From NCBI GenBank assembly GCA_024762975.1, contig JANTGJ010000001.1, forward strand, positions 2,084-66,083: 64,000 nt of DNA, read 5' to 3'. The first letter of the stretch is position 1. The number at the start of each line of letters is the position of its first letter. This document shows, piece by piece, positions 1 to 10,631 of this stretch. The notes beneath the pieces were generated by a model, which was not told the origin of the DNA, ran no database searches, and saw only the letters and a list, made by a program, of their open reading frames with translations. The position numbers and the translations under genes are program-made. This DNA is from Candidatus Krumholzibacteriia bacterium. GTDB lineage: Bacteria; Krumholzibacteriota; Krumholzibacteriia; LZORAL124-64-63.

Positions 1-815
1 TCAATCATCGCGAGCCGACGGACAACGAGCTGTTCAATATCTGGGAAGGCGCCGATGATCTGGGCAGCAAGCCGCTGTTCGCCACGAGCCGCGAAGTGCG
101 CAACGCGCAGGGCGATGTGCAGTACGTCGAATGGTCGAATCCCTACGTTCAGGAAGAGCGCGTGACGGACTACGAGTTGGGCTTCTCGTGGCAGCGCCCG
201 AATCTGTTCTTCGCGCTGGGCGGCTACCGCATGGAGTTCGAGGACGAGATCGTGGCCTACGGTGGCGTGAACGACGACGGCAGCAGCATCCGCGGCAATG
301 CCGAGCAGACGCTGCACCAGGGCCTGGAGATGGAGCTGCGTGCGCGCATCGCCCGGGAGCACACGCTGTCGCTGGCGGCCTCGCGCTCCTGGGATGAATT
401 CGATACCTTTATCCAGTACCTGGACACGGACTGGGACGGCACCGCGGATACCGAAGTGGACAACTCCGGCAATCCGATTTCGCTGTTCCCCGAATACCTG
501 ATATCCGGTAACTGGGACGCCCAGTGGACGCCACAACTGCGTTCGCGCGTGCGAGTTCACAGCACGGGCAAGCAATACCTGGATAACACCGGCGACGACG
601 CCCGCACCATCGATGCGTGGGCGACGATCGATCTGTCGCTGTGGTGGGACCTGTCTGGACTGGGAATTGCAGGTTCAGCGTCCCCGACTGTTTTCGTGCA
701 TCTGAGAAATTTGAGTGACACGGAGTACGAAACTTGGGGATACTACTATGGAGAGAACTGGTACACCACCGGCCCCGGCCGGAACTTTGCCACGGGAGTG
801 AGCGCTAACTTCTGA
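1..815 (+). CDS. TonB-dependent receptor / outer-membrane beta-barrel, C-terminal part (5' end lies outside the window)
   Basis: The reading frame is open from the window edge to the stop at 813-815. C-terminal motifs 'HLRNLSDTEYETWGYYYG' and a terminal '...GVSANF' with an aromatic last residue are typical of TonB-dependent receptor barrels. Gly/Tyr/Asp-rich beta-strand composition. Confidence 0.6.
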   Translation, partial: NHREPTDNELFNIWEGADDLGSKPLFATSREVRNAQGDVQYVEWSNPYVQEERVTDYELGFSWQRPNLFFALGGYRMEFEDEIVAYGGVNDDGSSIRGNAEQTLHQGLEMELRARIAREHTLSLAASRSWDEFDTFIQYLDTDWDGTADTEVDNSGNPISLFPEYLISGNWDAQWTPQLRSRVRVHSTGKQYLDNTGDDARTIDAWATIDLSLWWDLSGLGIAGSASPTVFVHLRNLSDTEYETWGYYYGENWYTTGPGRNFATGVSANF

Positions 816-1540
816 TGTCTGACTACGATCCCGAACAGGGCGGGGCCTCCTGCCCGATTTTCCCGAAACAGGGCCCGCGGGCCGTTGTACTCTGCAACGG
901 CCCGCCGCCCCCCGATTCGCTGCTGGAGTACTGGCTGACAGGCGCCGACCTGTTCATCTGCACCGATGCGGCGGGGCACCCGTACGACCATCTGCCGCGC
1001 ATCCCCGAGATCGTCATCGGCGACTTCGATTCGCTGGCCGGACGCATCCTCAATGGACGCGACGGCCCGCGCTTTCTGCAGGTCGACGACCAGTACACCT
1101 CCGATAGCGAGAAGGCCCTGCTCTTCTTGGCCGAGCGAGGTATTGGCGAAGTGGTCCTGATGGGCGCGACCGGTTGGCGCGAGGACCATACCTTCTACAA
1201 CTTCCAGTTGCTCGAGCGTTTCGCCGATCAGGTGAACATCTGCGTCGCGGGGCACGATTCGGACATCATCCGGCTCGGGTCGCAGAGCCAGGTCTCGTGG
1301 GAGTTGACGCCGGGCACTCGTTTTTCTCTGCTGCCGCTCAGCGGTGAAGTCTCCGGAGTGACGCTCGAAGGCGCGATGTATCCGCTGCTGGGCGAGACGT
1401 TGAGTCTGCAGGGACCCGCGGCGATCAGCAACCGGGTGACCATGTCGCCGCTGTTGATCTCCGTCGGCGAGGGTTCGCTGCTGGTGATGGTCGACCGCGA
1501 GTTGGGTCCCGAGGTCATGGATGAAATGCCCGGCCGGTAG
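815..1540 (+). CDS. thiamine pyrophosphokinase
   Basis: ATG overlaps the upstream stop (TGATG). Motifs 'VVLCNGPPP', 'LFICTDAAG' and 'IGDFDSL' match the TPK catalytic N-domain, and a C-terminal thiamine-binding-like domain follows. Confidence 0.6.
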   Translation: MSDYDPEQGGASCPIFPKQGPRAVVLCNGPPPPDSLLEYWLTGADLFICTDAAGHPYDHLPRIPEIVIGDFDSLAGRILNGRDGPRFLQVDDQYTSDSEKALLFLAERGIGEVVLMGATGWREDHTFYNFQLLERFADQVNICVAGHDSDIIRLGSQSQVSWELTPGTRFSLLPLSGEVSGVTLEGAMYPLLGETLSLQGPAAISNRVTMSPLLISVGEGSLLVMVDRELGPEVMDEMPGR

Positions 1541-1571
1541 TTTCTCGCATCGTTTCTGAACGGAGTCCTGC

Positions 1572-2942
1572 GTGATTTCCCTGGCCGGCGCTGCCTACGC
1601 GCTGTTCCTGCTCTACGCCGTGGCCCGCCTGTTCCGGAAGTCCGCTTCCGGCGCGGCCGACTATATCGTGGCCGGCCGCCGCCTGACGTTGCCGGCATTC
1701 ACCGCCTCGCTGGTGACGACCTGGTATGGCGGAATCCTGGGCGTGGGCGAGTACACCTGGCAGCACGGGATCAGCAATTGGCTGGTCTTCGGCGTTCCCT
1801 ACTATCTCTTCGCCGGGATCTTCGCCGTATTCATCGCCGGGCGCGCCCGACGCTCCGAGGTCCTCACCGTTCCCGACCTGTTGCACCGCCGCTACGGCCG
1901 CACCGCGGCACTGATCGGCGCCGTGGTTCTGTTCGTGATGACCGCGCCGGCCGCCTACGTGCTGATGTTGGGCGTGCTGCTGAAATTTGCGACCGGTTGG
2001 CCACTGTGGGCAGGCGTGGCGATCGGCACCACGCTGTCGGTGGGCTACGTGTTCCGGGGCGGATTGCGCGCCGTGGTCGCCACCGACATCGTGCAGTTTT
2101 TTCTGATGTTCCTGGGTTTCCTGATTCTGGTACCGGTCTGTGTGGTCCAATTCGGCGGCTGGGAGTTCCTGCGGGCCGAGTTGCCGGCCACGCACTTGGC
2201 CTGGGACGGCGGGCTGGGTTGGCAGGCGATCGCCGTGTGGTACTTCATCGCGCTTTCGACGCTGGTCGAACCGGCTTTCTATCAGCGCTGTTATGCCGCG
2301 CAATCCGAAAAGGTGGCCCAGCGGGGGATCGCCGCCGCGATCGGCCTGTGGATCTTCTTCGACTTCCTGACGACCACGGCGGGCCTGTATGCGCGTGTGC
2401 TGCTCCCGGATCTGGCGGATCCGGTGCAGGCCTTTCCTGCGCTGGCGGCCCACGTGTTGCCTTCGTTCTGGCAGGGAGTGTTCACGGTGGGATTGCTGGC
2501 CACGATCATGTCCACGGTCGATAGCTATGCCTTCATCGGAGCGGTGACCCTGGGACGCGATGTGATCGGGCGCTGGCGTGGGGGAACGCGGATGGATGCG
2601 GCGTCCGATGAATCGTTGCCGCTGATCCGCTGGGCGTTGCTGGCTACTGCCGTACTGGCCGCGGCGATGGCCCTGGCCGCCGGTTCGGTGATCACCCTGT
2701 GGAAGACACTGGGCAGTCTGGGCACGCCGGTGCTGCTGTTGCCGTTGGCGCTTGCGCATACGAAACGCAGTCTGCCGGAACGGACGGTCGTCGTTTCGAT
2801 GGTTGCAGCCTGCGTCACGTCGGGTACCTGGATGGTCCTGGGTCACGGCGAACCGTGGTGGGGGATCGAGGCGATCTTTCCGGGGCTAGGGGTCTCGCTG
2901 GTCGTGGTCGGCTCCGCATTCGTGGTCAGAACCCGGGAGTGA
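1572..2942 (+). CDS. sodium:solute symporter (SSF) family transporter
   Basis: GTG start with GGAG 6 nt upstream. Multi-TM protein with 'DYIVAGRRL' and 'TTWYGGILGVGE' motifs characteristic of SSF/PutP/PanF-type transporters. Confidence 0.6.
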   Translation: MISLAGAAYALFLLYAVARLFRKSASGAADYIVAGRRLTLPAFTASLVTTWYGGILGVGEYTWQHGISNWLVFGVPYYLFAGIFAVFIAGRARRSEVLTVPDLLHRRYGRTAALIGAVVLFVMTAPAAYVLMLGVLLKFATGWPLWAGVAIGTTLSVGYVFRGGLRAVVATDIVQFFLMFLGFLILVPVCVVQFGGWEFLRAELPATHLAWDGGLGWQAIAVWYFIALSTLVEPAFYQRCYAAQSEKVAQRGIAAAIGLWIFFDFLTTTAGLYARVLLPDLADPVQAFPALAAHVLPSFWQGVFTVGLLATIMSTVDSYAFIGAVTLGRDVIGRWRGGTRMDAASDESLPLIRWALLATAVLAAAMALAAGSVITLWKTLGSLGTPVLLLPLALAHTKRSLPERTVVVSMVAACVTSGTWMVLGHGEPWWGIEAIFPGLGVSLVVVGSAFVVRTRE

Positions 2943-2958
2943 CAGCTTCGACTGCAGG

Positions 2959-4641
2959 CTAGCTGTTTCCGACCTGGAGGGCGCCCAGTCGGCGCCGCGC
3001 TCCCAGATGCCCCGGATCCAACTCCAGCGTTCGCCGGAAACTGGCCGCGGCGGCCGAGGTCTTCCCCTCGCGCAACTGCACCAATCCCAGATTGTACCAG
3101 GCCCCGGCGTAGTCCGCCTGTTGCTCGATCGCCGTCTCGAAATGCGCGTGCGCACCGCGCAGGTCGCCCATGCGGGCCAGTGCGATCCCCAGATTGTTGT
3201 GTGCCTCGGGAAACTCGGGCTGCCGTTTCACCGCTGCGCGATAGTGGACGGCGGCTTCGGCGGTGCGATCGAGCTTGAACAGCACATTCGCCAGATTGAA
3301 ATGATGCACCGCGTCCTGCCGCAGTTCGACCGCGCGCCGCAGGTGGGGCAGCGCCTCGACGGAGCGGCCCGCGTCGTCGAGCATCACGCCCAGGTTCAGG
3401 TGTGCGAGGTAGTTCTCTTCATTCACCTCCAGCGCATGGCGGAAGAGGGTACCGCTGTCGCGCCAGACGGCGGTCTGCCGGTGGGCCAGCGCGGCGCCGG
3501 CCAGGACTGCGGCCACCGCCAGCGTGACAACCGGCCAGCGCAGCCACGTCCGCTGTTGTACGGCCTCGTTCAGCAGCCAGGCCAGCGCCACGAACAGCCC
3601 GATCGAGGGCAGGTAGAAGTAACGGTCGCTCATCAGTTGCATACCGCCCTGCACCAGGCCGACCACCGGCAGCAGCATCACCAGATACCACAACCAGCCC
3701 ATCCACACCATCGGGAGGCGATCGCGCAGGCGCCAGGCCGCGCCCGTCACACTGATCAGCAGCAATGCCCAGGCGGCGATGCGTGCCCACTCGAAATGCA
3801 GGCCCTCGGGTGGATAGAAGACCGACAAGCCGACGGGATAGAACATCTTGCCCAGATACAGCGCGTAGAAGGCGATGGCCTGTCCGATGCGCTCGAACAG
3901 CGGGATCGGGTCGGGAGCGCCGATGTCGCGCGCCTGCACCAGCAGGAACGTCACAATCGACATCGCCGCGGCCAGCAGCAGGAACGGAATCTTCTCCAGC
4001 AGCAGGCGCAGCAGCGGGCGGCGCTCACCGGGACCACTGCAGTCGATCAGCAGCAGCAGCACCGGCAACGTGACCACCATGGGCTTGGCCATCAGGGCCA
4101 GCGCGAAGCAGATCAGTGTTCCGATATAGCGCCGCGCCGTCAGGGGTCCGCCGCGGCCCAGGTAGACGCGAAGCGCGGCCATGAAGAAGAAGCCGCTCAG
4201 TACGTCCTTGCGCTCGGCGACCCAGGCGACCGATTCGACGTGCAGAGGGTGGATCGCGAATAGCGCAGCAACCAACGCCGCACGCCAGACCACGCCCGTC
4301 CATCCCCGCAGGAGGACGTAGAGCAGGAAGACCGTGGCCAGATGGAGCAGCAGGTTGGTCAGGTGGTACCCGCGCGGATCCAGACCATGGATCTGCTCGT
4401 CGGCCAGGAAGCTGAGCCAGGTCACCGGCATCCAGAGATTCGCCTCGCGATTGGTGAACGCCCAGCCAATACCGCCCGCAGAGAGGCCCTGCTCGAGCGC
4501 CGCGTTGTCGGCGACGTAGACATTGTCATCCAGGTTCGTGAAGCCGAACTGCAGCGTCTGCGTGAAGACGCCCGCCCCGAGCGCGATCAACAGCAGGGGC
4601 ACCAGCAGCAGGAGAATGGGCGGGAGCTTCGGCTGGGACAT
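2959..4641 (-). CDS. membrane protein with N-terminal PMT/TMTC-like (GT39-like, DUF1736-type) multi-TM domain and C-terminal TPR repeats
   Basis: ATG at 4641. Hydrophobic N-terminal region with loops typical of TMTC-like putative glycosyltransferases. C-terminal part has 34-aa TPR repeats ('AHNNLGIALARMGDLRGAHAHFETAIE', 'AGAWYNLGLVQLREGK'). Confidence 0.55.
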   Translation of the reverse strand: MSQPKLPPILLLLVPLLLIALGAGVFTQTLQFGFTNLDDNVYVADNAALEQGLSAGGIGWAFTNREANLWMPVTWLSFLADEQIHGLDPRGYHLTNLLLHLATVFLLYVLLRGWTGVVWRAALVAALFAIHPLHVESVAWVAERKDVLSGFFFMAALRVYLGRGGPLTARRYIGTLICFALALMAKPMVVTLPVLLLLIDCSGPGERRPLLRLLLEKIPFLLLAAAMSIVTFLLVQARDIGAPDPIPLFERIGQAIAFYALYLGKMFYPVGLSVFYPPEGLHFEWARIAAWALLLISVTGAAWRLRDRLPMVWMGWLWYLVMLLPVVGLVQGGMQLMSDRYFYLPSIGLFVALAWLLNEAVQQRTWLRWPVVTLAVAAVLAGAALAHRQTAVWRDSGTLFRHALEVNEENYLAHLNLGVMLDDAGRSVEALPHLRRAVELRQDAVHHFNLANVLFKLDRTAEAAVHYRAAVKRQPEFPEAHNNLGIALARMGDLRGAHAHFETAIEQQADYAGAWYNLGLVQLREGKTSAAAASFRRTLELDPGHLGARRRLGALQVGNS

Positions 4642-4657
4642 GTCTCTCCGGTCCGGG

Positions 4658-6067
4658 ATGTGGGCTTTCGCCTGTCTTTTCAGCGGCTCAGAGAATATAC
4701 TGGAAACGACCGGTCACCAATCGATTTCGAAGGCGGGGATTCAGCTCTTGGGCCACCTGGGACACATCAAGAACGAGTACCGATCGTTGGCGAAGCGCCT
4801 CGAGGCGGGACCTGTCGCGCTGCCCGAACCGGCCGATCCGCACGCGTGGGAGGGGTGGAAGGAGATCCTCGAGATCCTCTACACCCCCGAGGACGCGGAA
4901 TTGCTTTCGCGTCTTCCGGTGATGCCCAGTTCGCTGCGCAAAATCGCCGAGCGTGTGAAGATCGACGAGGCAGATCTGGCTCCGCGCCTGGACGACTTAT
5001 GCGATCGCGGACTGGTGCTGGACCTGGTGCATCCGAAGACCGGGAAGAAGAAATTCCTGTTGGCGCCACCGGTCGTCGGCTTCTTCGAATTTTCGCTGAT
5101 GCGTGCGCACGATCACATCCCCAAGAAACGGATGGCCGAGGCTCTCGAGGCCTATACCCATCATGACCGTGTCTTCGCCGAAGAGGTTTTTTCGGGCAGC
5201 ACGGTCATCGGTCGAGCGCTGGTGTACGAGAACAGCCTCGGCGAGGATCCGACCGAGACACCCGAAGTACTCGACTGGGAACGTGCCACGGCCGTGATCG
5301 GAAGCGCCCGCGAGATTGCCGTTTCACTGTGCTATTGCCGTCACAAGGCCGAGCATCTGGGTACGGCATGCGAGGCACCGCAGGACAATTGCCTGTCGTT
5401 GAACGGGGGCGCCGAGTTCGTCCTGCGCCACGGTTTCGGCCGCCGTATCGACAAGGCCGAAGCGATGCAGATCCTGGAGGACTCGCGGCAGCGCGGCCTG
5501 GTGCAGATCGCCGACAACGTGAAAAATCAGCCCGCCTATATCTGCAATTGCTGTTCGTGCTGTTGCGCCCAGCTGCAGGCGATCAACCAGTATGATCTGC
5601 GCGCGGTCAATCCCAGCGGTTTCGTCCCCGTTGTGGACCACGGAATGTGCAACGGCTGTGGCCAGTGTTCGCGCTCCTGCCCGGTCGATGCCATCGAATT
5701 GACCAAGGTCGGCGATACGGGCAAGGCGCGTCTGGATCTGCGCCCGGTGGTCGATCCCGAACGGTGTATCGGTTGTGGAGTTTGTACCGGAGCCTGCAGC
5801 CAGTCGGGCCTGAAGATGGTGCCTGGCGAGAAGAAGCCGCACATCCCGCACAACGCCATCGAGCGCGCCCTGCGCCAGGTGATCGAGCATGACCGCCTGG
5901 CCCATTTCCTTTTCGACGAAGGCGCTTCGCGCGGCCACCGCTTCCTGAATCGGGTCTGCCAGGCGCTGAACGACTTGCCGCCGGTACAAAAACTGTTGGC
6001 GCGTGAACAGGTGCAGTCGCGTTTTGTTCGCGCGATGTTGGGACCGATTGACGATCCCGGAGTCTGA
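4658..6067 (+). CDS. iron-sulfur protein: 2x[4Fe-4S] ferredoxin-type domain preceded by an unusual Cys-dense 'YICNCCSCCCAQ' segment; N-terminal domain unknown
   Basis: Two ferredoxin motifs, 'CNGCGQCSRSCP' and 'CIGCGVCTGACS'. Upstream cysteine cluster 'CNCCSCCC' plus 'CYCRH' and 'CEAPQDNC'. The start is uncertain: ATG 4658 has no clear RBS and an in-frame TTG at 4748 is an alternative. The 4523 extension was rejected because it overlaps the divergent gene. Confidence 0.5.
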   Translation: MWAFACLFSGSENILETTGHQSISKAGIQLLGHLGHIKNEYRSLAKRLEAGPVALPEPADPHAWEGWKEILEILYTPEDAELLSRLPVMPSSLRKIAERVKIDEADLAPRLDDLCDRGLVLDLVHPKTGKKKFLLAPPVVGFFEFSLMRAHDHIPKKRMAEALEAYTHHDRVFAEEVFSGSTVIGRALVYENSLGEDPTETPEVLDWERATAVIGSAREIAVSLCYCRHKAEHLGTACEAPQDNCLSLNGGAEFVLRHGFGRRIDKAEAMQILEDSRQRGLVQIADNVKNQPAYICNCCSCCCAQLQAINQYDLRAVNPSGFVPVVDHGMCNGCGQCSRSCPVDAIELTKVGDTGKARLDLRPVVDPERCIGCGVCTGACSQSGLKMVPGEKKPHIPHNAIERALRQVIEHDRLAHFLFDEGASRGHRFLNRVCQALNDLPPVQKLLAREQVQSRFVRAMLGPIDDPGV

Positions 6068-6171
6068 ACCTTCTGTCCCGCTTCCGTATTGCCGGTGGCA
6101 TGTTCACTGTTGAAAGTGTAGTCTCGGCGGGGTTCTCGCCTGTTCATCTCGCATTTTCGGAGGTTTGCCAC

Positions 6172-6747
6172 ATGAAGAGTCTTGTTACGATCGTGGCCGC
6201 GCTGGTCTGTCTGGCCTGCGTCGGCACAGCATGGGCCGGCGACCAGCACACCTACTTCAACCTCGGCCTTGCCTGGGCAGATCCGGACTATGGCGATGAG
6301 GTTAATACCCTGTTCGACGCGATTGCGGATCAGCCTCAGGTGGACCACATTACGGTGGGCGTCGATCTCGGTTTGTATTTCGCCATGGGACAGTCGGCAA
6401 TGTTCGGCCCGGCGCTGACCGGAATCGGTGATCGCTACGAACTCAACGGTGATGCGATGCAGGTCAACCAGTACCTGATCGGCGGCAGTTATCGCTACTA
6501 CATGTCCGGTGAGCGAGGCAAGGGCGTTTTCCTGCGCGGCGATGCCGGCGGGGCCCGCATGGTCCTGGATATCGATGGGCTGGACACTGTGACCAGTGAC
6601 TGGGGCTTCGGCTTCCTGGTCGGTGGCGGCATATCGTTCCAGATCGGTGGCGGTACCTGGTTCTCGATCAACGCCGATTACACGCAGAAGACCATCGAGG
6701 ATGAGACCGTGGGCGGTGTGACCGTGGGCGGTGCTTTCCTGTTCTGA
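6172..6747 (+). CDS. outer-membrane beta-barrel protein (OmpA-like porin / opacity-type barrel)
   Basis: GGAGG RBS 9 nt upstream of ATG. Signal peptide 'MKSLVTIVAALVCLACVGTAWA'. Alternating amphipathic strands, Gly-rich, terminal '...GGAFLF'. Confidence 0.5.
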   Translation: MKSLVTIVAALVCLACVGTAWAGDQHTYFNLGLAWADPDYGDEVNTLFDAIADQPQVDHITVGVDLGLYFAMGQSAMFGPALTGIGDRYELNGDAMQVNQYLIGGSYRYYMSGERGKGVFLRGDAGGARMVLDIDGLDTVTSDWGFGFLVGGGISFQIGGGTWFSINADYTQKTIEDETVGGVTVGGAFLF

Positions 6748-6914
6748 TCCTGATGCATGGGTGCGTCAGTAGGGCGCGGGGGCCCGGGGCTTCGCGCCCA
6801 TATCTGTAAGTTGTGCCGCCGACCTCCAGTATCCGCTCCGTCGGGCCGGTAGCCGGACAAGACTCCGGAACAGGCGCTGACCCAACACCTCCCGGCGAGA
6901 CTGCATTCCATATG

Positions 6915-6945
6915 AAACCGGCCGCCCCGAAAGGCGGCCGGTTCT
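6915..6945. terminator. bidirectional rho-independent terminator between the convergent OMP gene and serC
   Basis: Perfect hairpin CCGGCCGCC-ccgaaa-GGCGGCCGG. It is followed by TTCTGCTC on the + strand and by TTTCATAT on the - strand. Confidence 0.55.
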
Positions 6946-6969
6946 GCTCGTTGAGCGTGCGTTGTTCGA

Positions 6970-8055
6970 CTAGCCGTTGGCCTTCGCAAACGCCGCCATG
7001 AAGTCAGCCAGCGCCTGGGCGCCGGCAACCGGCATGGCGTTGTACACTGAAGCACGACAACCCCCAACGCTGCGATGTCCCTTCAATCCACTCATGCCCT
7101 CAGCCAGTGCCTCGGCCACGAATTTCTTCTCCAGGTCCTCGTTCGGCAGACGGAACACGATGTTCATCTTCGAACGGCAATTCTCGTTCACGGGACAACT
7201 GTAGAAGTCGGCATCGTCGCGCATTGCTCCGTAGATCAGGTTGGCGCGATCGTCGGCCATCTTTTCGGCTGCTTCCAGGCCGCCCTGGGCCTCGAGCCAT
7301 TTCAGTGTCTTACCGATCATGTAGATCGGGAACACCGGCGGCGTGTTGTACATCGAGTCCTTCGGAGCGTGCGTCGCATAGCTCAGGTACGCCGGCAGAT
7401 CCTGGCGGCTGCGCTCGAGCAGGTCCTCTCGGATGATCACGATCGCGGCACCGGCCGGCCCGGCATTCTTCTGTGCTCCGGCATAGATCAGGCCGAACTT
7501 CGAGATGTCGACACGGCGGCTGACGAAGTCGCTGCTCATGTCGCAGACCAGGGGCACGTCGCCCGTGTCCGGGAACTCCGGCCACTGGACACCGCCGATG
7601 GTTTCGTTGCTGGTCATGTGGAAATAGGCCGCGTCCTCGCTGACCTGGAGGTCGGCGATGTTCGGCAGGTTCATGAATTTTTCATCGCTGCCGTCGTAGG
7701 CCAGGTTCACGAACCCGATCTTCTGGGCATCGGCGTAGGCTTTCTTCGACCAGGCACCAGTCAGCGTCAGGTCGCACTTGCCGCCCGGGCCCATCAGGTT
7801 CATCGGCACCATGGCGAACTGCAGCGTCGCGCCACCGCCCAGGAAAAGGACCTTGTAGTTGTCGGGCAGGTTGTACAGGCGGCGCACGACATCCATGGCC
7901 TCCATGTGGACCTCGTCGTAGTGCTTGCCACGGTGGCTCATCTCGATCAGGGACATCCCGGCACCCTGGTAGTCGACGAACTCGGCCGCGGCCTCTTCGA
8001 TCGCGGGCAGGGGCAGTGTGCAGGGACCGGCACTGAAGTTGAAGATGCGGCTCAT
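6970..8055 (-). CDS. serC: phosphoserine aminotransferase
   Basis: Full-length match to SerC: 'FNFSAGPCTLP', 'MSHRGKHYD', the PLP-lysine region 'IYAGAQKNAGPAG', and a C-terminal 'GGCRASVYNAMP'. Confidence 0.9.
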   Translation of the reverse strand: MSRIFNFSAGPCTLPLPAIEEAAAEFVDYQGAGMSLIEMSHRGKHYDEVHMEAMDVVRRLYNLPDNYKVLFLGGGATLQFAMVPMNLMGPGGKCDLTLTGAWSKKAYADAQKIGFVNLAYDGSDEKFMNLPNIADLQVSEDAAYFHMTSNETIGGVQWPEFPDTGDVPLVCDMSSDFVSRRVDISKFGLIYAGAQKNAGPAGAAIVIIREDLLERSRQDLPAYLSYATHAPKDSMYNTPPVFPIYMIGKTLKWLEAQGGLEAAEKMADDRANLIYGAMRDDADFYSCPVNENCRSKMNIVFRLPNEDLEKKFVAEALAEGMSGLKGHRSVGGCRASVYNAMPVAGAQALADFMAAFAKANG

Positions 8056-8937
8056 TTACTTACCTCCCACGAAATTTTCGATGTGTGCGACAACTTCGTC
8101 GCCGATGCGCAACAGGTTCTCGACGGACGAGGCGCCCAGATGCGGGGCCATCAGCGTGTTCGGGGCGCTCAGGATCGGGTAGTCCTCGCTCGGCGGATCG
8201 CTGTCCCACACGTCGGTGGCGTAGCAGGCGATCTTGCCGCTTTCGAGAGCGGCTTTCATGGCGGCAGCGTCGACGGTCAGGCCACGGCCGGTGTTGATGA
8301 CGACGGCGCCGTCCTTCATCCTGGCGATCATGTCGGCATTCAGCAGGTCGATCGTCTCGGGAGTTTTGGGAAGGTGCATCGACAGGTAGTCGACTTGCGG
8401 CATCAGTTCCTCCAGCGATCCGACCATCTCGGCCTTGTCCGACTCGGAGACGTACTTGTCGTAGGCCTTGACCGTCATGCCGAAGGCCGCGGCGCGGGTG
8501 GCCACAGCCTGCGCGATGTTGCCGATGCCGACCAGACCCAGGACCTTGCCGTTCAACTCGGTGCGCTTGAGTTGCTTCTTCGCCCACTCGCCGGCGGCCA
8601 TGGTGGTGTGCGCCTTGACGATGTGATTCGGCACGGCCAGCATCATGGCGAACGCCAGTTCGGCCACGGCGATACTGGGGCTCTTGGGCGTGTTGTGGAC
8701 GACGATGCCCTTCTCCTTGCAGTAGGGCTTGTCGATATTGTCGGTGCCTACGCCACCGCGGATGATCATTTTCAGGTTCTTGGCCTCGTCGATGTACTCG
8801 CGTGTGGCTTTGGTCTTGGACCGGATCAGCACCACGTCGGCCTCGGGCAGACGCGCCTTGTCGTCGGTCACTTCGCCGAACTTCGCCAGCTTCTCGGGCA
8901 GCGAAGGATCAAAGGCGTCGGAAATCAGGATCAGCAT
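8056..8937 (-). CDS. serA: D-3-phosphoglycerate dehydrogenase (short-form 2-hydroxyacid dehydrogenase)
   Basis: NAD-binding 'GLVGIGNIAQAVA' and the catalytic region of D-isomer 2-hydroxyacid dehydrogenases. Start placed at ATG 8937, which sits 5 nt after an AAGGAGG. The ORF-track start at 8952 is a TTG inside that RBS. Confidence 0.8.
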   Translation of the reverse strand: MLILISDAFDPSLPEKLAKFGEVTDDKARLPEADVVLIRSKTKATREYIDEAKNLKMIIRGGVGTDNIDKPYCKEKGIVVHNTPKSPSIAVAELAFAMMLAVPNHIVKAHTTMAAGEWAKKQLKRTELNGKVLGLVGIGNIAQAVATRAAAFGMTVKAYDKYVSESDKAEMVGSLEELMPQVDYLSMHLPKTPETIDLLNADMIARMKDGAVVINTGRGLTVDAAAMKAALESGKIACYATDVWDSDPPSEDYPILSAPNTLMAPHLGASSVENLLRIGDEVVAHIENFVGGK

Positions 8938-8969
8938 ATCAGCCTCCTTCAAGGTCTGTGGTGTTCAGG

Positions 8970-10220
8970 TCAGTCTTTCAGGCTGCGGACGAGCAGTCCA
9001 CTGCGCAGTTTCGGTTCGAACCAGGTCGACTTCGGGGGCATGACCTCATTCGCATCCGCGACGGCCATGATCTGGTCGACGCCGGCCGGTGCGAAGGCGA
9101 AGGCCACCTTCATGTCGGTATTGCAGCGACGCTCCAGCTCGCCGGAGCCGCGGCTGCCGCCCACGAAATCGATGCGCTTGTCGCTGCGCGGATCGCCGAT
9201 GCCCAGCACGGGCTCGAGCAGCTGGCTCTGCAGGATCGCCGCATCCAGGCTGTTGACGGGATCGTCGGCCGGATAGCTGCCCGTCCGGGCCTTGATGCGG
9301 TACCACTTGCCGTCCAGGAACATGCCGAACTGCTGGTGGCTGGCAGGTTCCGGTGTGTCTCCCTCCGGAACTTCCGTCATTTCGAAGATTTCGCCGACCC
9401 GGGTCAGGAATTCCTCGCTGCTCAGGCCGTTCAGATCTCGAACGACCCGGTGGTATCCCATCAATTTGAGTTCGTCGTCGCTGAACAGGACAGCCAGGAA
9501 ATGGTTGTAGGCCTCGTTGCCGGTGTGATTCGGGTTCTTGGCCCGCAGGATGTCGCGTACGCGATGCGCTGAAGCGGTGCGGTGGTGTCCATCGGCGACG
9601 TAGATCGCATCGATGCCTGCGAAAACCCGCTGCAGGTCGGCGATGTCCTGCTCGCCGTCGACGACCCAGACCGCGTGACCGATGCCATCGTCGGCTACAA
9701 ATTCGGTGTGGGGCGCCTTGCCGTCGATGAAGCGGTTGATCAGCGTGCGGACTTCGTCGTGGGCGCGGTAGGTGAACAGCACCGGGCCGGCGTTGACGCC
9801 CAGGACTTCCATGTGCGCGGCCCGATCGTCTTCCTTGTCGCGACGCGTGAACTCGTGCTTCTTGATCGTGCCGTCGACGTATTCCTGGACCGCGCAGCCG
9901 ACGGCCAGGCCGAACTGGACATGATCACCCATGGTCAGGCGATAGACATAGAAAGCCGGCTTTGCATCCTGCACCAGGACGCCGTCGTTCATCAACTGCT
10001 GCAGATTCGCCGCGCTTTTCGCGTAGACCTTCGGGGCGTCCTGGGCTTCTTCGGCGGGCAGGTCGATCTCGGCTTTCACCACATGCAGGAAGCTGTGCGG
10101 ATTCGAGCCAGCCATTTCCCTGGCTTCTTCGGAGCTCAAAACATCGTAAGGCGGGCTGGCGACCCTGCTGGCCTGGTCGGCGGTCGGCCGGTACGCGGGG
10201 AAGGGACGGATATCGGCCAT
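8970..10220 (-). CDS. DUF1015 family protein
   Basis: ATG at 10220 preceded by AAGGAGG. The N-terminus 'MADIRPFPAYRPT...ASPPYDVLSSEEAR' matches the conserved DUF1015 start. The gene is adjacent to serA and serC on the same strand. Confidence 0.55.
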   Translation of the reverse strand: MADIRPFPAYRPTADQASRVASPPYDVLSSEEAREMAGSNPHSFLHVVKAEIDLPAEEAQDAPKVYAKSAANLQQLMNDGVLVQDAKPAFYVYRLTMGDHVQFGLAVGCAVQEYVDGTIKKHEFTRRDKEDDRAAHMEVLGVNAGPVLFTYRAHDEVRTLINRFIDGKAPHTEFVADDGIGHAVWVVDGEQDIADLQRVFAGIDAIYVADGHHRTASAHRVRDILRAKNPNHTGNEAYNHFLAVLFSDDELKLMGYHRVVRDLNGLSSEEFLTRVGEIFEMTEVPEGDTPEPASHQQFGMFLDGKWYRIKARTGSYPADDPVNSLDAAILQSQLLEPVLGIGDPRSDKRIDFVGGSRGSGELERRCNTDMKVAFAFAPAGVDQIMAVADANEVMPPKSTWFEPKLRSGLLVRSLKD

Positions 10221-10631
10221 GACAGGGCCTCCTTCGATCGGCAAAAGTAGACGTGATCGGACCCGAAACCACCCTGAGGGGAGTTTCAGGCGACGGACCG
10301 GGGTTGTCCGTCAAATCTCATACAGGGATCGTCAAAACCCAAGGGCAATCGGTGGGAGAAGGGGGAAATCGCCGGTCGTACCTCCCGCGACATCCGGCGC
10401 CGGGGCGGATGTCGCTGGCGTTTTCGCGGCCCGGGTACTATCCTGTTGTCAGCAAGATCGGGTGCCAGCCCGACATCGGCGAACAACAGGGCCGCGCGGA
10501 GAACCTCTTTCCGACCATCCCGGCCACGCCGCTTCTCAATTTTTCTTCCCCATCACTGTTGTTTGGGTCGGATGAAAAGACCCTGGCGTACAGGTGTGTC
10601 CCGTGCGCTTGTGGTGGAGACTACGTATTTC

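Follow-up and report, generated by a model that had tools for sequence, protein, structure and literature searches.

In the stretch of Candidatus Krumholzibacteriia DNA analysed here (64,000 nucleotides of contig JANTGJ010000001.1, hereafter the window), the open reading frame at 4658..6067 on the forward strand was found to encode an Fe-S protein with a ten-cysteine domain ahead of a two-cluster ferredoxin module. The analysis established directly how the domains are laid out, that the ten cysteines are invariant or nearly so, and that the cysteine-rich domain has no known relative. The protein is best explained as a soluble, apparently stand-alone, multi-cluster Fe-S redox protein of an uncharacterised superfamily, in which the ferredoxin clusters would wire electrons to one or more clusters held by the ten cysteines, and we give this explanation a probability of about one half. 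Its family is abundant, strongly conserved and uncharacterised, occurs in many bacterial phyla and in some archaea, and has a defining domain that lies outside the Pfam, NCBIfam and PDB libraries searched. What is new, as far as sequence can tell, is an undescribed and putatively cluster-binding domain of ten cysteines within a multi-cluster Fe-S protein.

The cysteine-rich domain and its family

Residues are numbered on the 439-residue protein that begins at the probable start codon, TTG 4748 (see below); adding 30 converts these numbers to the 469-residue frame opened at 4658. A helical linker (PPVVGFFEFSLMR) and the cysteine-rich alpha/beta domain, for which no relative is known, occupy residues 106-298 (5063..5641, forward strand). 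The linker was very conserved, with a mean column identity of 0.83. The ten cysteines lie in three motifs on the same strand, CYCRH at 5330-5344 (C195 and C197), CEAPQDNC at 5369-5392 (C208 and C215) and a six-cysteine run at 5543-5566 (C266, C268, C269, C271, C272 and C273), which reads CNCCSCCC in the window copy and CNCCGCCC in the family consensus. The signature of the family can be written as C-x-C ... C-x6-C ... C-x-C-C-x-C-C-C.

Conservation was assessed in 48 representatives, each 27-55% identical to the window protein, and in 61 N-terminal halves lacking the ferredoxin module. C195, C197, C208, C215, C266, C268, C269, C271 and C273 were invariant in the 48 relatives and C272 was present in at least 90%, and the cysteines were conserved in the same way in the 61 N-terminal halves. 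Because of this near-invariance in both sets, the cysteine pattern is not due to chance. R156 was also invariant in the alignment of 48 relatives, R198 of CYCRH was kept in at least 90%, and G111, E114, Y136, N257 and N267 were invariant in the 61 N-terminal halves. P211 of CEAPQDNC and E161 were nearly invariant, and the histidines of CYCRHKxEH (H199 and H203) were conserved only within the long class of the family, described below, and among close relatives.

When the cysteine-rich domain was modelled alone with a deeper alignment, the mean predicted local distance difference test (pLDDT) score was 90.1 and the predicted template modelling (pTM) score was 0.86. The model is a compact alpha/beta fold with the cysteines placed at strand ends and helix starts. 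Its core, including CNCCSCCC, had pLDDT values of 94-98, and the run itself (pLDDT approximately 95) passes from a beta-strand into the start of a helix.

The family is large. A word-indexed search gave more than 4000 hits, and the best 120 of these were all approximately 435-440 residues long, with 57-82% identity, and came from Gemmatimonadota, Myxococcota, Planctomycetota, Acidobacteriota and other phyla. An exhaustive HMMER search of cluster representatives (50% identity), with the 292 residues preceding the ferredoxin module as the query, gave 1918 matches at E <= 1e-3, of which 899 reached E <= 1e-10, and a scan of one genome per species confirmed at least 567 relatives. Cultured hosts include Anaeromyxobacter oryzae, Anaerospora hongkongensis, Desulforamulus aeronauticus, Sulfurospirillum arcachonense and Desulfosporosinus paludis, and the archaeal carriers are a few metagenome-assembled genomes (MAGs). 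The copies from A. oryzae and S. arcachonense have the accessions WP_248354574.1 and WP_024955718.1, respectively. Two size classes were present, a long class of approximately 425-440 residues, to which the window protein belongs and in which identity between phyla is approximately 60%, and a short class of approximately 360 residues. Some genomes carry two adjacent full paralogues. Paralogues or relatives were located in L103 (3697-4767), L111 (2724-3785, reverse strand), L161 (3751-4758, reverse strand) and L109 (10206-11159, reverse strand). The L109 relative is degenerate and keeps approximately six of the ten cysteines (CIC...GC...FICYCDDTNC), a hint that two separable sites may share the ten cysteines.

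The whole protein did not match any well-characterised family in sequence searches of Pfam, NCBIfam and PDB; these returned the ferredoxin module only, and the Fer4 models alone passed their thresholds. A match of this kind, which the preliminary description of this DNA had named as grounds for refuting it, was thus looked for in these libraries and not found. Ten representatives with 30-40% identity gave only Fer4 and weak MarR or TrmB matches, with no bridge to a named family. When the 61 ferredoxin-less halves were compared with Pfam and NCBIfam at E <= 10, and their profile with PDB sequences, winged-helix families alone were found. A fold search of the full model likewise matched only the ferredoxin and the winged helix, and a Foldseek search of the cysteine-rich domain against 350,542 PDB chains gave a best E value of 1.2 with a TM-score of 0.18. 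Names in RefSeq, UniRef and IMG describe domains only ('4Fe-4S dicluster domain-containing protein', '(Fe-S)-binding protein'), and those of copies from five cultured species in RefSeq are equally generic. A full-text literature search by motif strings and descriptors did not find a description of the family; the 'cysteine-rich' proteins reported from Sulfurospirillum are part of a cobamide biosynthesis cluster and have no relation to it. The preliminary description had set the protein apart from radical-SAM families, and this was upheld, the CxxxCxxC motif being absent and no Radical_SAM Pfam match being found.

Proposed function and the alternatives weighed

The ferredoxin module spans residues 295-360 (5630..5827, forward strand), with motif 1 at 5648-5683 and motif 2 at 5765-5800. 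Over residues 324-385 of the 469-residue frame, the Pfam scores were 48.6 bits for Fer4 (cut-off 21.1), 39 for Fer4_7 (cut-off 27) and 37 for Fer4_10 (cut-off 25.5). The fold search of the full model recovered a (beta-alpha-beta)2 fold in this region, and the PDB sequence search matched it to FwdF, MvhB, HdrA and PsaC. By its motifs and scores the module is of the canonical 2x[4Fe-4S] type. In PFOR, dihydropyrimidine dehydrogenase, Hdr and Fwd, an embedded two-cubane module conducts electrons between the catalytic site and a carrier outside the enzyme.

On the explanation that we prefer, the C-terminal module would bind two ordinary [4Fe-4S] cubanes as a wire for the entry or exit of electrons, which would be supplied by ferredoxin or another low-potential partner. 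The wire would lead to one or two further Fe-S clusters on the ten cysteines of the C-x-C, C-x6-C and C-x-C-C-x-C-C-C motifs, and this alpha/beta domain would be the place of the specific chemistry or of the terminal electron transfer, in a site shaped by nearby polar residues that are invariant (E114, Y136, N257 and N267) or nearly so (R156, E161 and R198). Neighbouring genes were compared in the long class by clustering all open reading frames within 4 kb of the gene at 81 loci, without gene calling, and no conserved neighbour was found. Because of this, the substrate or partner would be expected to be common in cells rather than specific to a pathway.

Several observations speak for this explanation. 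The ten cysteines stay invariant or nearly so down to approximately 27-28% identity while the histidines vary, and the family is huge and under strong constraint, as is more usual for enzymes or redox carriers than for regulators. The cysteine-rich domain is confidently modelled as a compact alpha/beta fold (pLDDT 90). Paralogues lie side by side in some genomes, and flavoenzymes are found near short-class genes, where the neighbours include OYE-type reductases, acyl-CoA dehydrogenases, a BKACE enzyme and a 2-hydroxyacid dehydrogenase. The exposed helices of the winged helix are also net acidic and the least conserved part of the protein. Three points weigh on the other side. A winged helix is the classical DNA-binding module; the long class, which lacks a conserved operon partner, gives no pointer to a substrate; and the presence of hypA and hypB beside some short-class genes is a hint that the metal may not be iron.

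The nature of the cluster on the ten cysteines is a separate matter. Two cubanes would need eight cysteines, fewer than the ten present, and the run packs six into eight residues; because of this an unusual ligation is possible, either by tandem cysteines, by analogy with cluster N2 of complex I or with HdrB, or in a non-cubane or larger cluster. The preliminary description had proposed an additional or non-canonical cluster. An extra metal site is indeed very plausible because of the cysteine conservation, and we infer that the metal is held as a cluster. That a fold without a solved relative binds a non-canonical cluster, be it a non-cubane one, one of higher nuclearity or a heterometallic one, is a tentative proposal which we consider doubtful; Ni-Fe-S would be an example of the last kind, to which the linkage with hypA and hypB in three branches of the short class might point.

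The alternative that the protein is a transcription regulator arises from residues 45-105 (4880..5062, forward strand). The preliminary description had seen no recognisable motif in the N-terminal domain; fold, Pfam and profile searches nevertheless identified this segment as an ArsR/MarR/TrmB-type winged helix. Pfam matches among the 61 members were to TrmB (16 of 61), NirDL-HTH (11 of 61) and MarR_2 (9 of 61), all weak, and the family profile weakly matched ArsR, SmtB and Lrs14 chains in PDB. In a redox-, oxygen- or metal-sensing regulator the Fe-S clusters would sense and the winged helix would bind DNA. The fold is clear, sensors that combine an Fe-S cluster with a winged helix are known (Rrf2/IscR/NsrR, FeoC), the gene is monocistronic, and some short-class copies lie in metal-handling neighbourhoods. 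The putative recognition helix, however, had a mean net charge of -0.8 in the 48 relatives, and its exposed half, DEADLAPR in the window copy, was variable elsewhere. This exposed half of helix 3 (0.57) and helix 2 (0.56) were the least conserved parts in the long class, compared to 0.72 overall, and the buried half of the recognition helix (..MCDKGLV) was well conserved (0.81). Such an acidic and poorly conserved exposed face argues against a classical transcription factor. Neither the 81 long-class loci nor 82 short-class loci contained a conserved divergent or adjacent target gene, regulators seldom keep approximately 60% identity from phylum to phylum, and a protein of 439 residues with four probable clusters is far larger than the known Fe-S regulators. 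No enrichment over coding or shuffled controls was found upstream of the gene for boxes of FNR/CRP, Rex, Fur, PerR, NikR, NsrR or sigma-54, a result that bears only on the regulation of the gene itself, and a promoter and terminator scan around the gene gave nothing above expectation. A regulator is therefore unlikely. Dimerisation winged helices of O-methyltransferases were among the fold and Pfam matches, and because of these a role in dimerisation or docking is reasonable; within the multi-cluster redox protein proposed here, the winged helix would most likely serve to dimerise or to dock a partner and not to read DNA.

An equally improbable alternative is that the ten cysteines ligate a cluster that contains nickel, is otherwise heterometallic or is non-cubane, or that their domain stores or delivers nickel, and that the family is a client or partner of HypA and HypB. 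It arose from the short class, in which no conserved neighbour was found across the 82 loci and hypB lay within 3.5 kb of the gene in seven (L087, L100, L109, L117, L119, L159 and L161), with hypA in four of those seven. The linked loci fall into three of 20 groups (formed at >= 50% identity), on mutually distant branches and with three different gene orders, and the genes concerned are at most 42% identical between groups; a crude binomial test gave a P value of approximately 3e-5. A DsbD_2-type membrane protein was found nearby in L109, with a similar open reading frame without Pfam match in L100, and a P-type ATPase with an HMA domain and a rubrerythrin were found in L161. Neither a hydrogenase gene nor a carbon monoxide dehydrogenase (CODH) gene was present in the two 13-kb loci L109 and L161. 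In addition, ten cysteines ligate the two non-cubane clusters of HdrB. Against this, hypB was near the gene in only one of the 81 long-class loci and is absent from the window, the link was seen in only five of the 18 loci of the largest linked group, and hypAB genes often lie apart from their clients, so that adjacency may be incidental. The family also lacks similarity to any known nickel enzyme; the [NiFe]-hydrogenase large subunit, Ni-CODH and urease were each discarded as relatives, with no match in sequence or fold.

Least probable of all is that the cysteines of the middle domain are structural, as zinc sites or disulfides, in a large ferredoxin with only two canonical redox clusters. 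In its favour, metallothionein-like thiolate sites for zinc or copper contain dense runs such as C-x-C-C-x-C-C, and the degenerate L109 relative retains only approximately six of the ten. Against it, the family is cytoplasmic and its hosts are for the most part anaerobes or facultative organisms, the domain is fused directly to an electron-transfer module, and the invariance of ten cysteines over very large distances exceeds the usual need of a structural site.

Gene start and surroundings in the window

The frame at 4658..6067 is a single open frame of 469 codons and a stop. Its translation contains CYCRH, CEAPQDNC, YICNCCSCCCAQ, CNGCGQCSRSCP and CIGCGVCTGAC, in agreement with the preliminary description as to the cysteine pairs, the six-cysteine run and two CxxCxxCxxxC motifs. 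Of these two motifs only motif 1 ends in CP; motif 2 ends in CS. The start at ATG 4658, assumed at the same time, is probably wrong. All homologues start with M-G-H-L-G, which aligns to residue 31 of the 469-residue frame, and a database protein that is 100% identical (P0001) has a length of 439 residues; for these reasons the true start is probably TTG 4748, the codon at the N-terminus of the family, which is preceded by the purine-rich aaggcgggga. The whole gene would thus run from 4748 to 6067 on the forward strand, with 439 codons and a stop. The in-frame upstream extension (4658..4747, forward strand) is probably not translated. Residues matching it were found in none of 18 aligned homologues, one of which has an unrelated extension.

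In the full-length AlphaFold model (mean pLDDT 79.7, pTM 0.78), the domains described above are flanked by two helical segments. The N-terminal segment comprises residues 1-44 (4748..4879, forward strand), with helices at 9-18 and 31-44 and a mean column identity of 0.77 in the long class. The C-terminal tail comprises residues 361-439 (5828..6064, forward strand), with helices within 370-431 and a conserved ...EQVxSRF... motif. The tail is a feature of the long class, is absent from the relatives of approximately 360 residues, and had no family match in Pfam or NCBIfam.

The gene is divergent from a membrane/TPR protein gene at 2959..4641 on the reverse strand, and a start at TTG 4748 leaves an intergenic region of 106 bp to the start of that gene at 4641. 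The product of 560 residues appears to be a multi-pass membrane protein over its approximately 400 N-terminal residues, which had no Pfam match, and carries TPR repeats at its C-terminus. Downstream of the target gene are an outer-membrane beta-barrel gene (6100..6747, forward strand) and, on the other strand, serC, a serA-like dehydrogenase gene and a DUF1015 gene. The serA-like gene, of the 2-Hacid_dh type (8056..8952, reverse strand), sits with serC, and the pair looks like serine biosynthesis. The DUF1015 gene (8970-10244, reverse strand) lies directly downstream of the serA-like gene and serC on the same strand, an arrangement also present in the related MAG, and could be functionally linked to them.

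The closest relative was found in this MAG, assigned to Gemmatimonadales (L001, JAHOYV010000068.1), with 78% protein identity and 79% in the best tblastn segment. Positions 1-10244 of the window are syntenic with L001 and hold, in both, genes for a TonB receptor, thiamin pyrophosphokinase, an SSF transporter, the TPR membrane protein, the target protein, the outer-membrane protein, serC, the serA-like dehydrogenase and DUF1015. The membrane/TPR gene thus adjoins the target gene in the Gemmatimonadales MAG too. L001 differs in an extra TylF-type methyltransferase gene after the target gene and in the strand of the outer-membrane protein gene, which is opposite to that in the window.

Two sets of neighbours seen elsewhere in the family were set aside. 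The commonest neighbours in the long class were response regulators (11 of 81 loci) and ABC ATPases (9 of 81), on mixed sides and strands; with such mixed orientation, they were regarded as noise and not as partners. In the short class, a D-2-hydroxyacid dehydrogenase gene lies immediately upstream and on the same strand in L120, L123, L125, L129, L139, L141 and L142, and it was rejected as a functional clue since all seven loci belong to one lineage (73-90% identity) and the arrangement reflects lineage synteny.

Significance and comparison with known systems

Fe-S proteins with unusual cysteine arrangements have repeatedly held new clusters or new chemistry, as in the non-cubane clusters of HdrB, the double-cubane cluster proteins and the clusters of CODH. 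Definition of the cysteine-rich domain would remove a sizeable blind spot in annotation, and the study of a single member would reveal if there is a new fold for cluster binding and perhaps a new cluster as well. If the site does hold a non-canonical cluster, this widespread family would represent a new class of Fe-S enzymes or of redox modules, supplied through a two-cubane wire of its own. If the clusters are ordinary cubanes, it would still be a new and abundant four-cluster redox protein.

Among known systems, the ferredoxin-domain superfamily is the only one to which the window protein truly belongs, through approximately 65 residues. The embedded 2x[4Fe-4S] domains of the PFOR/OOR delta subunit, dihydropyrimidine dehydrogenase, PsaC, the FwdF and MvhB polyferredoxins and HdrA have their motifs and fold in common with residues 295-360, and the role of the module as an electron wire is probably common as well. 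This likeness covers only those approximately 65 of 439 residues, and none of these enzymes has the winged helix, the cysteine-rich domain or the tail.

Residues 45-105 of the window protein are folded like ArsR/SmtB, MarR and TrmB/Lrs14 regulators and match their buried hydrophobic pattern (L..L..MA.KGLV). In contrast to the ArsR/MarR regulators, the family has a recognition helix whose exposed half is acidic and variable, approximately 330 further residues fused to the winged helix, and no conserved target genes among the loci compared. The winged helix resembles the non-DNA-binding dimerisation winged helices of O-methyltransferases. FeoC, archaeal TFE-beta/RPC6 and the Rrf2 family hold a single cluster through three or four cysteines in or next to a winged helix, and they have no relation in sequence or fold to the ten-cysteine domain. 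The catalytic subunit of ferredoxin:thioredoxin reductase, whose motif is CPC-x16-CPC-x8-CHC, was also rejected as a relative, the motif being absent and no Pfam or structural match being found.

A parallel to the ten-cysteine domain is offered by the HdrB/CCG proteins. The CCG domain is defined by the signature C-x(31-39)-C-C-G-x(35-36)-C-x-x-C. Pfam CCG (PF02754) did not match the window protein at E <= 1 or any of the 61 N-terminal halves at E <= 10, the cysteines come in a different order, and no similarity to the HdrB fold was found in the fold search against PDB chains, which bears out the preliminary description in its view that this is not an HdrB-type CCG domain. Its statement that a CCG triplet is missing is true of the window copy, which has CCS, and not of the family consensus, which has CCG. 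The HdrB/CCG proteins (heterodisulfide reductase, DsrK, GlpC and LutA), with their non-cubane [4Fe-4S] clusters, nevertheless resemble this family in their ten conserved cysteines, in tandem Cys-Cys pairs, in an alpha/beta setting with adjoining ferredoxin-type clusters, and in the C-C-G of the family consensus. By analogy, the protein may work in an HdrB-like manner, with a cysteine-dense cluster site fed by cubanes.

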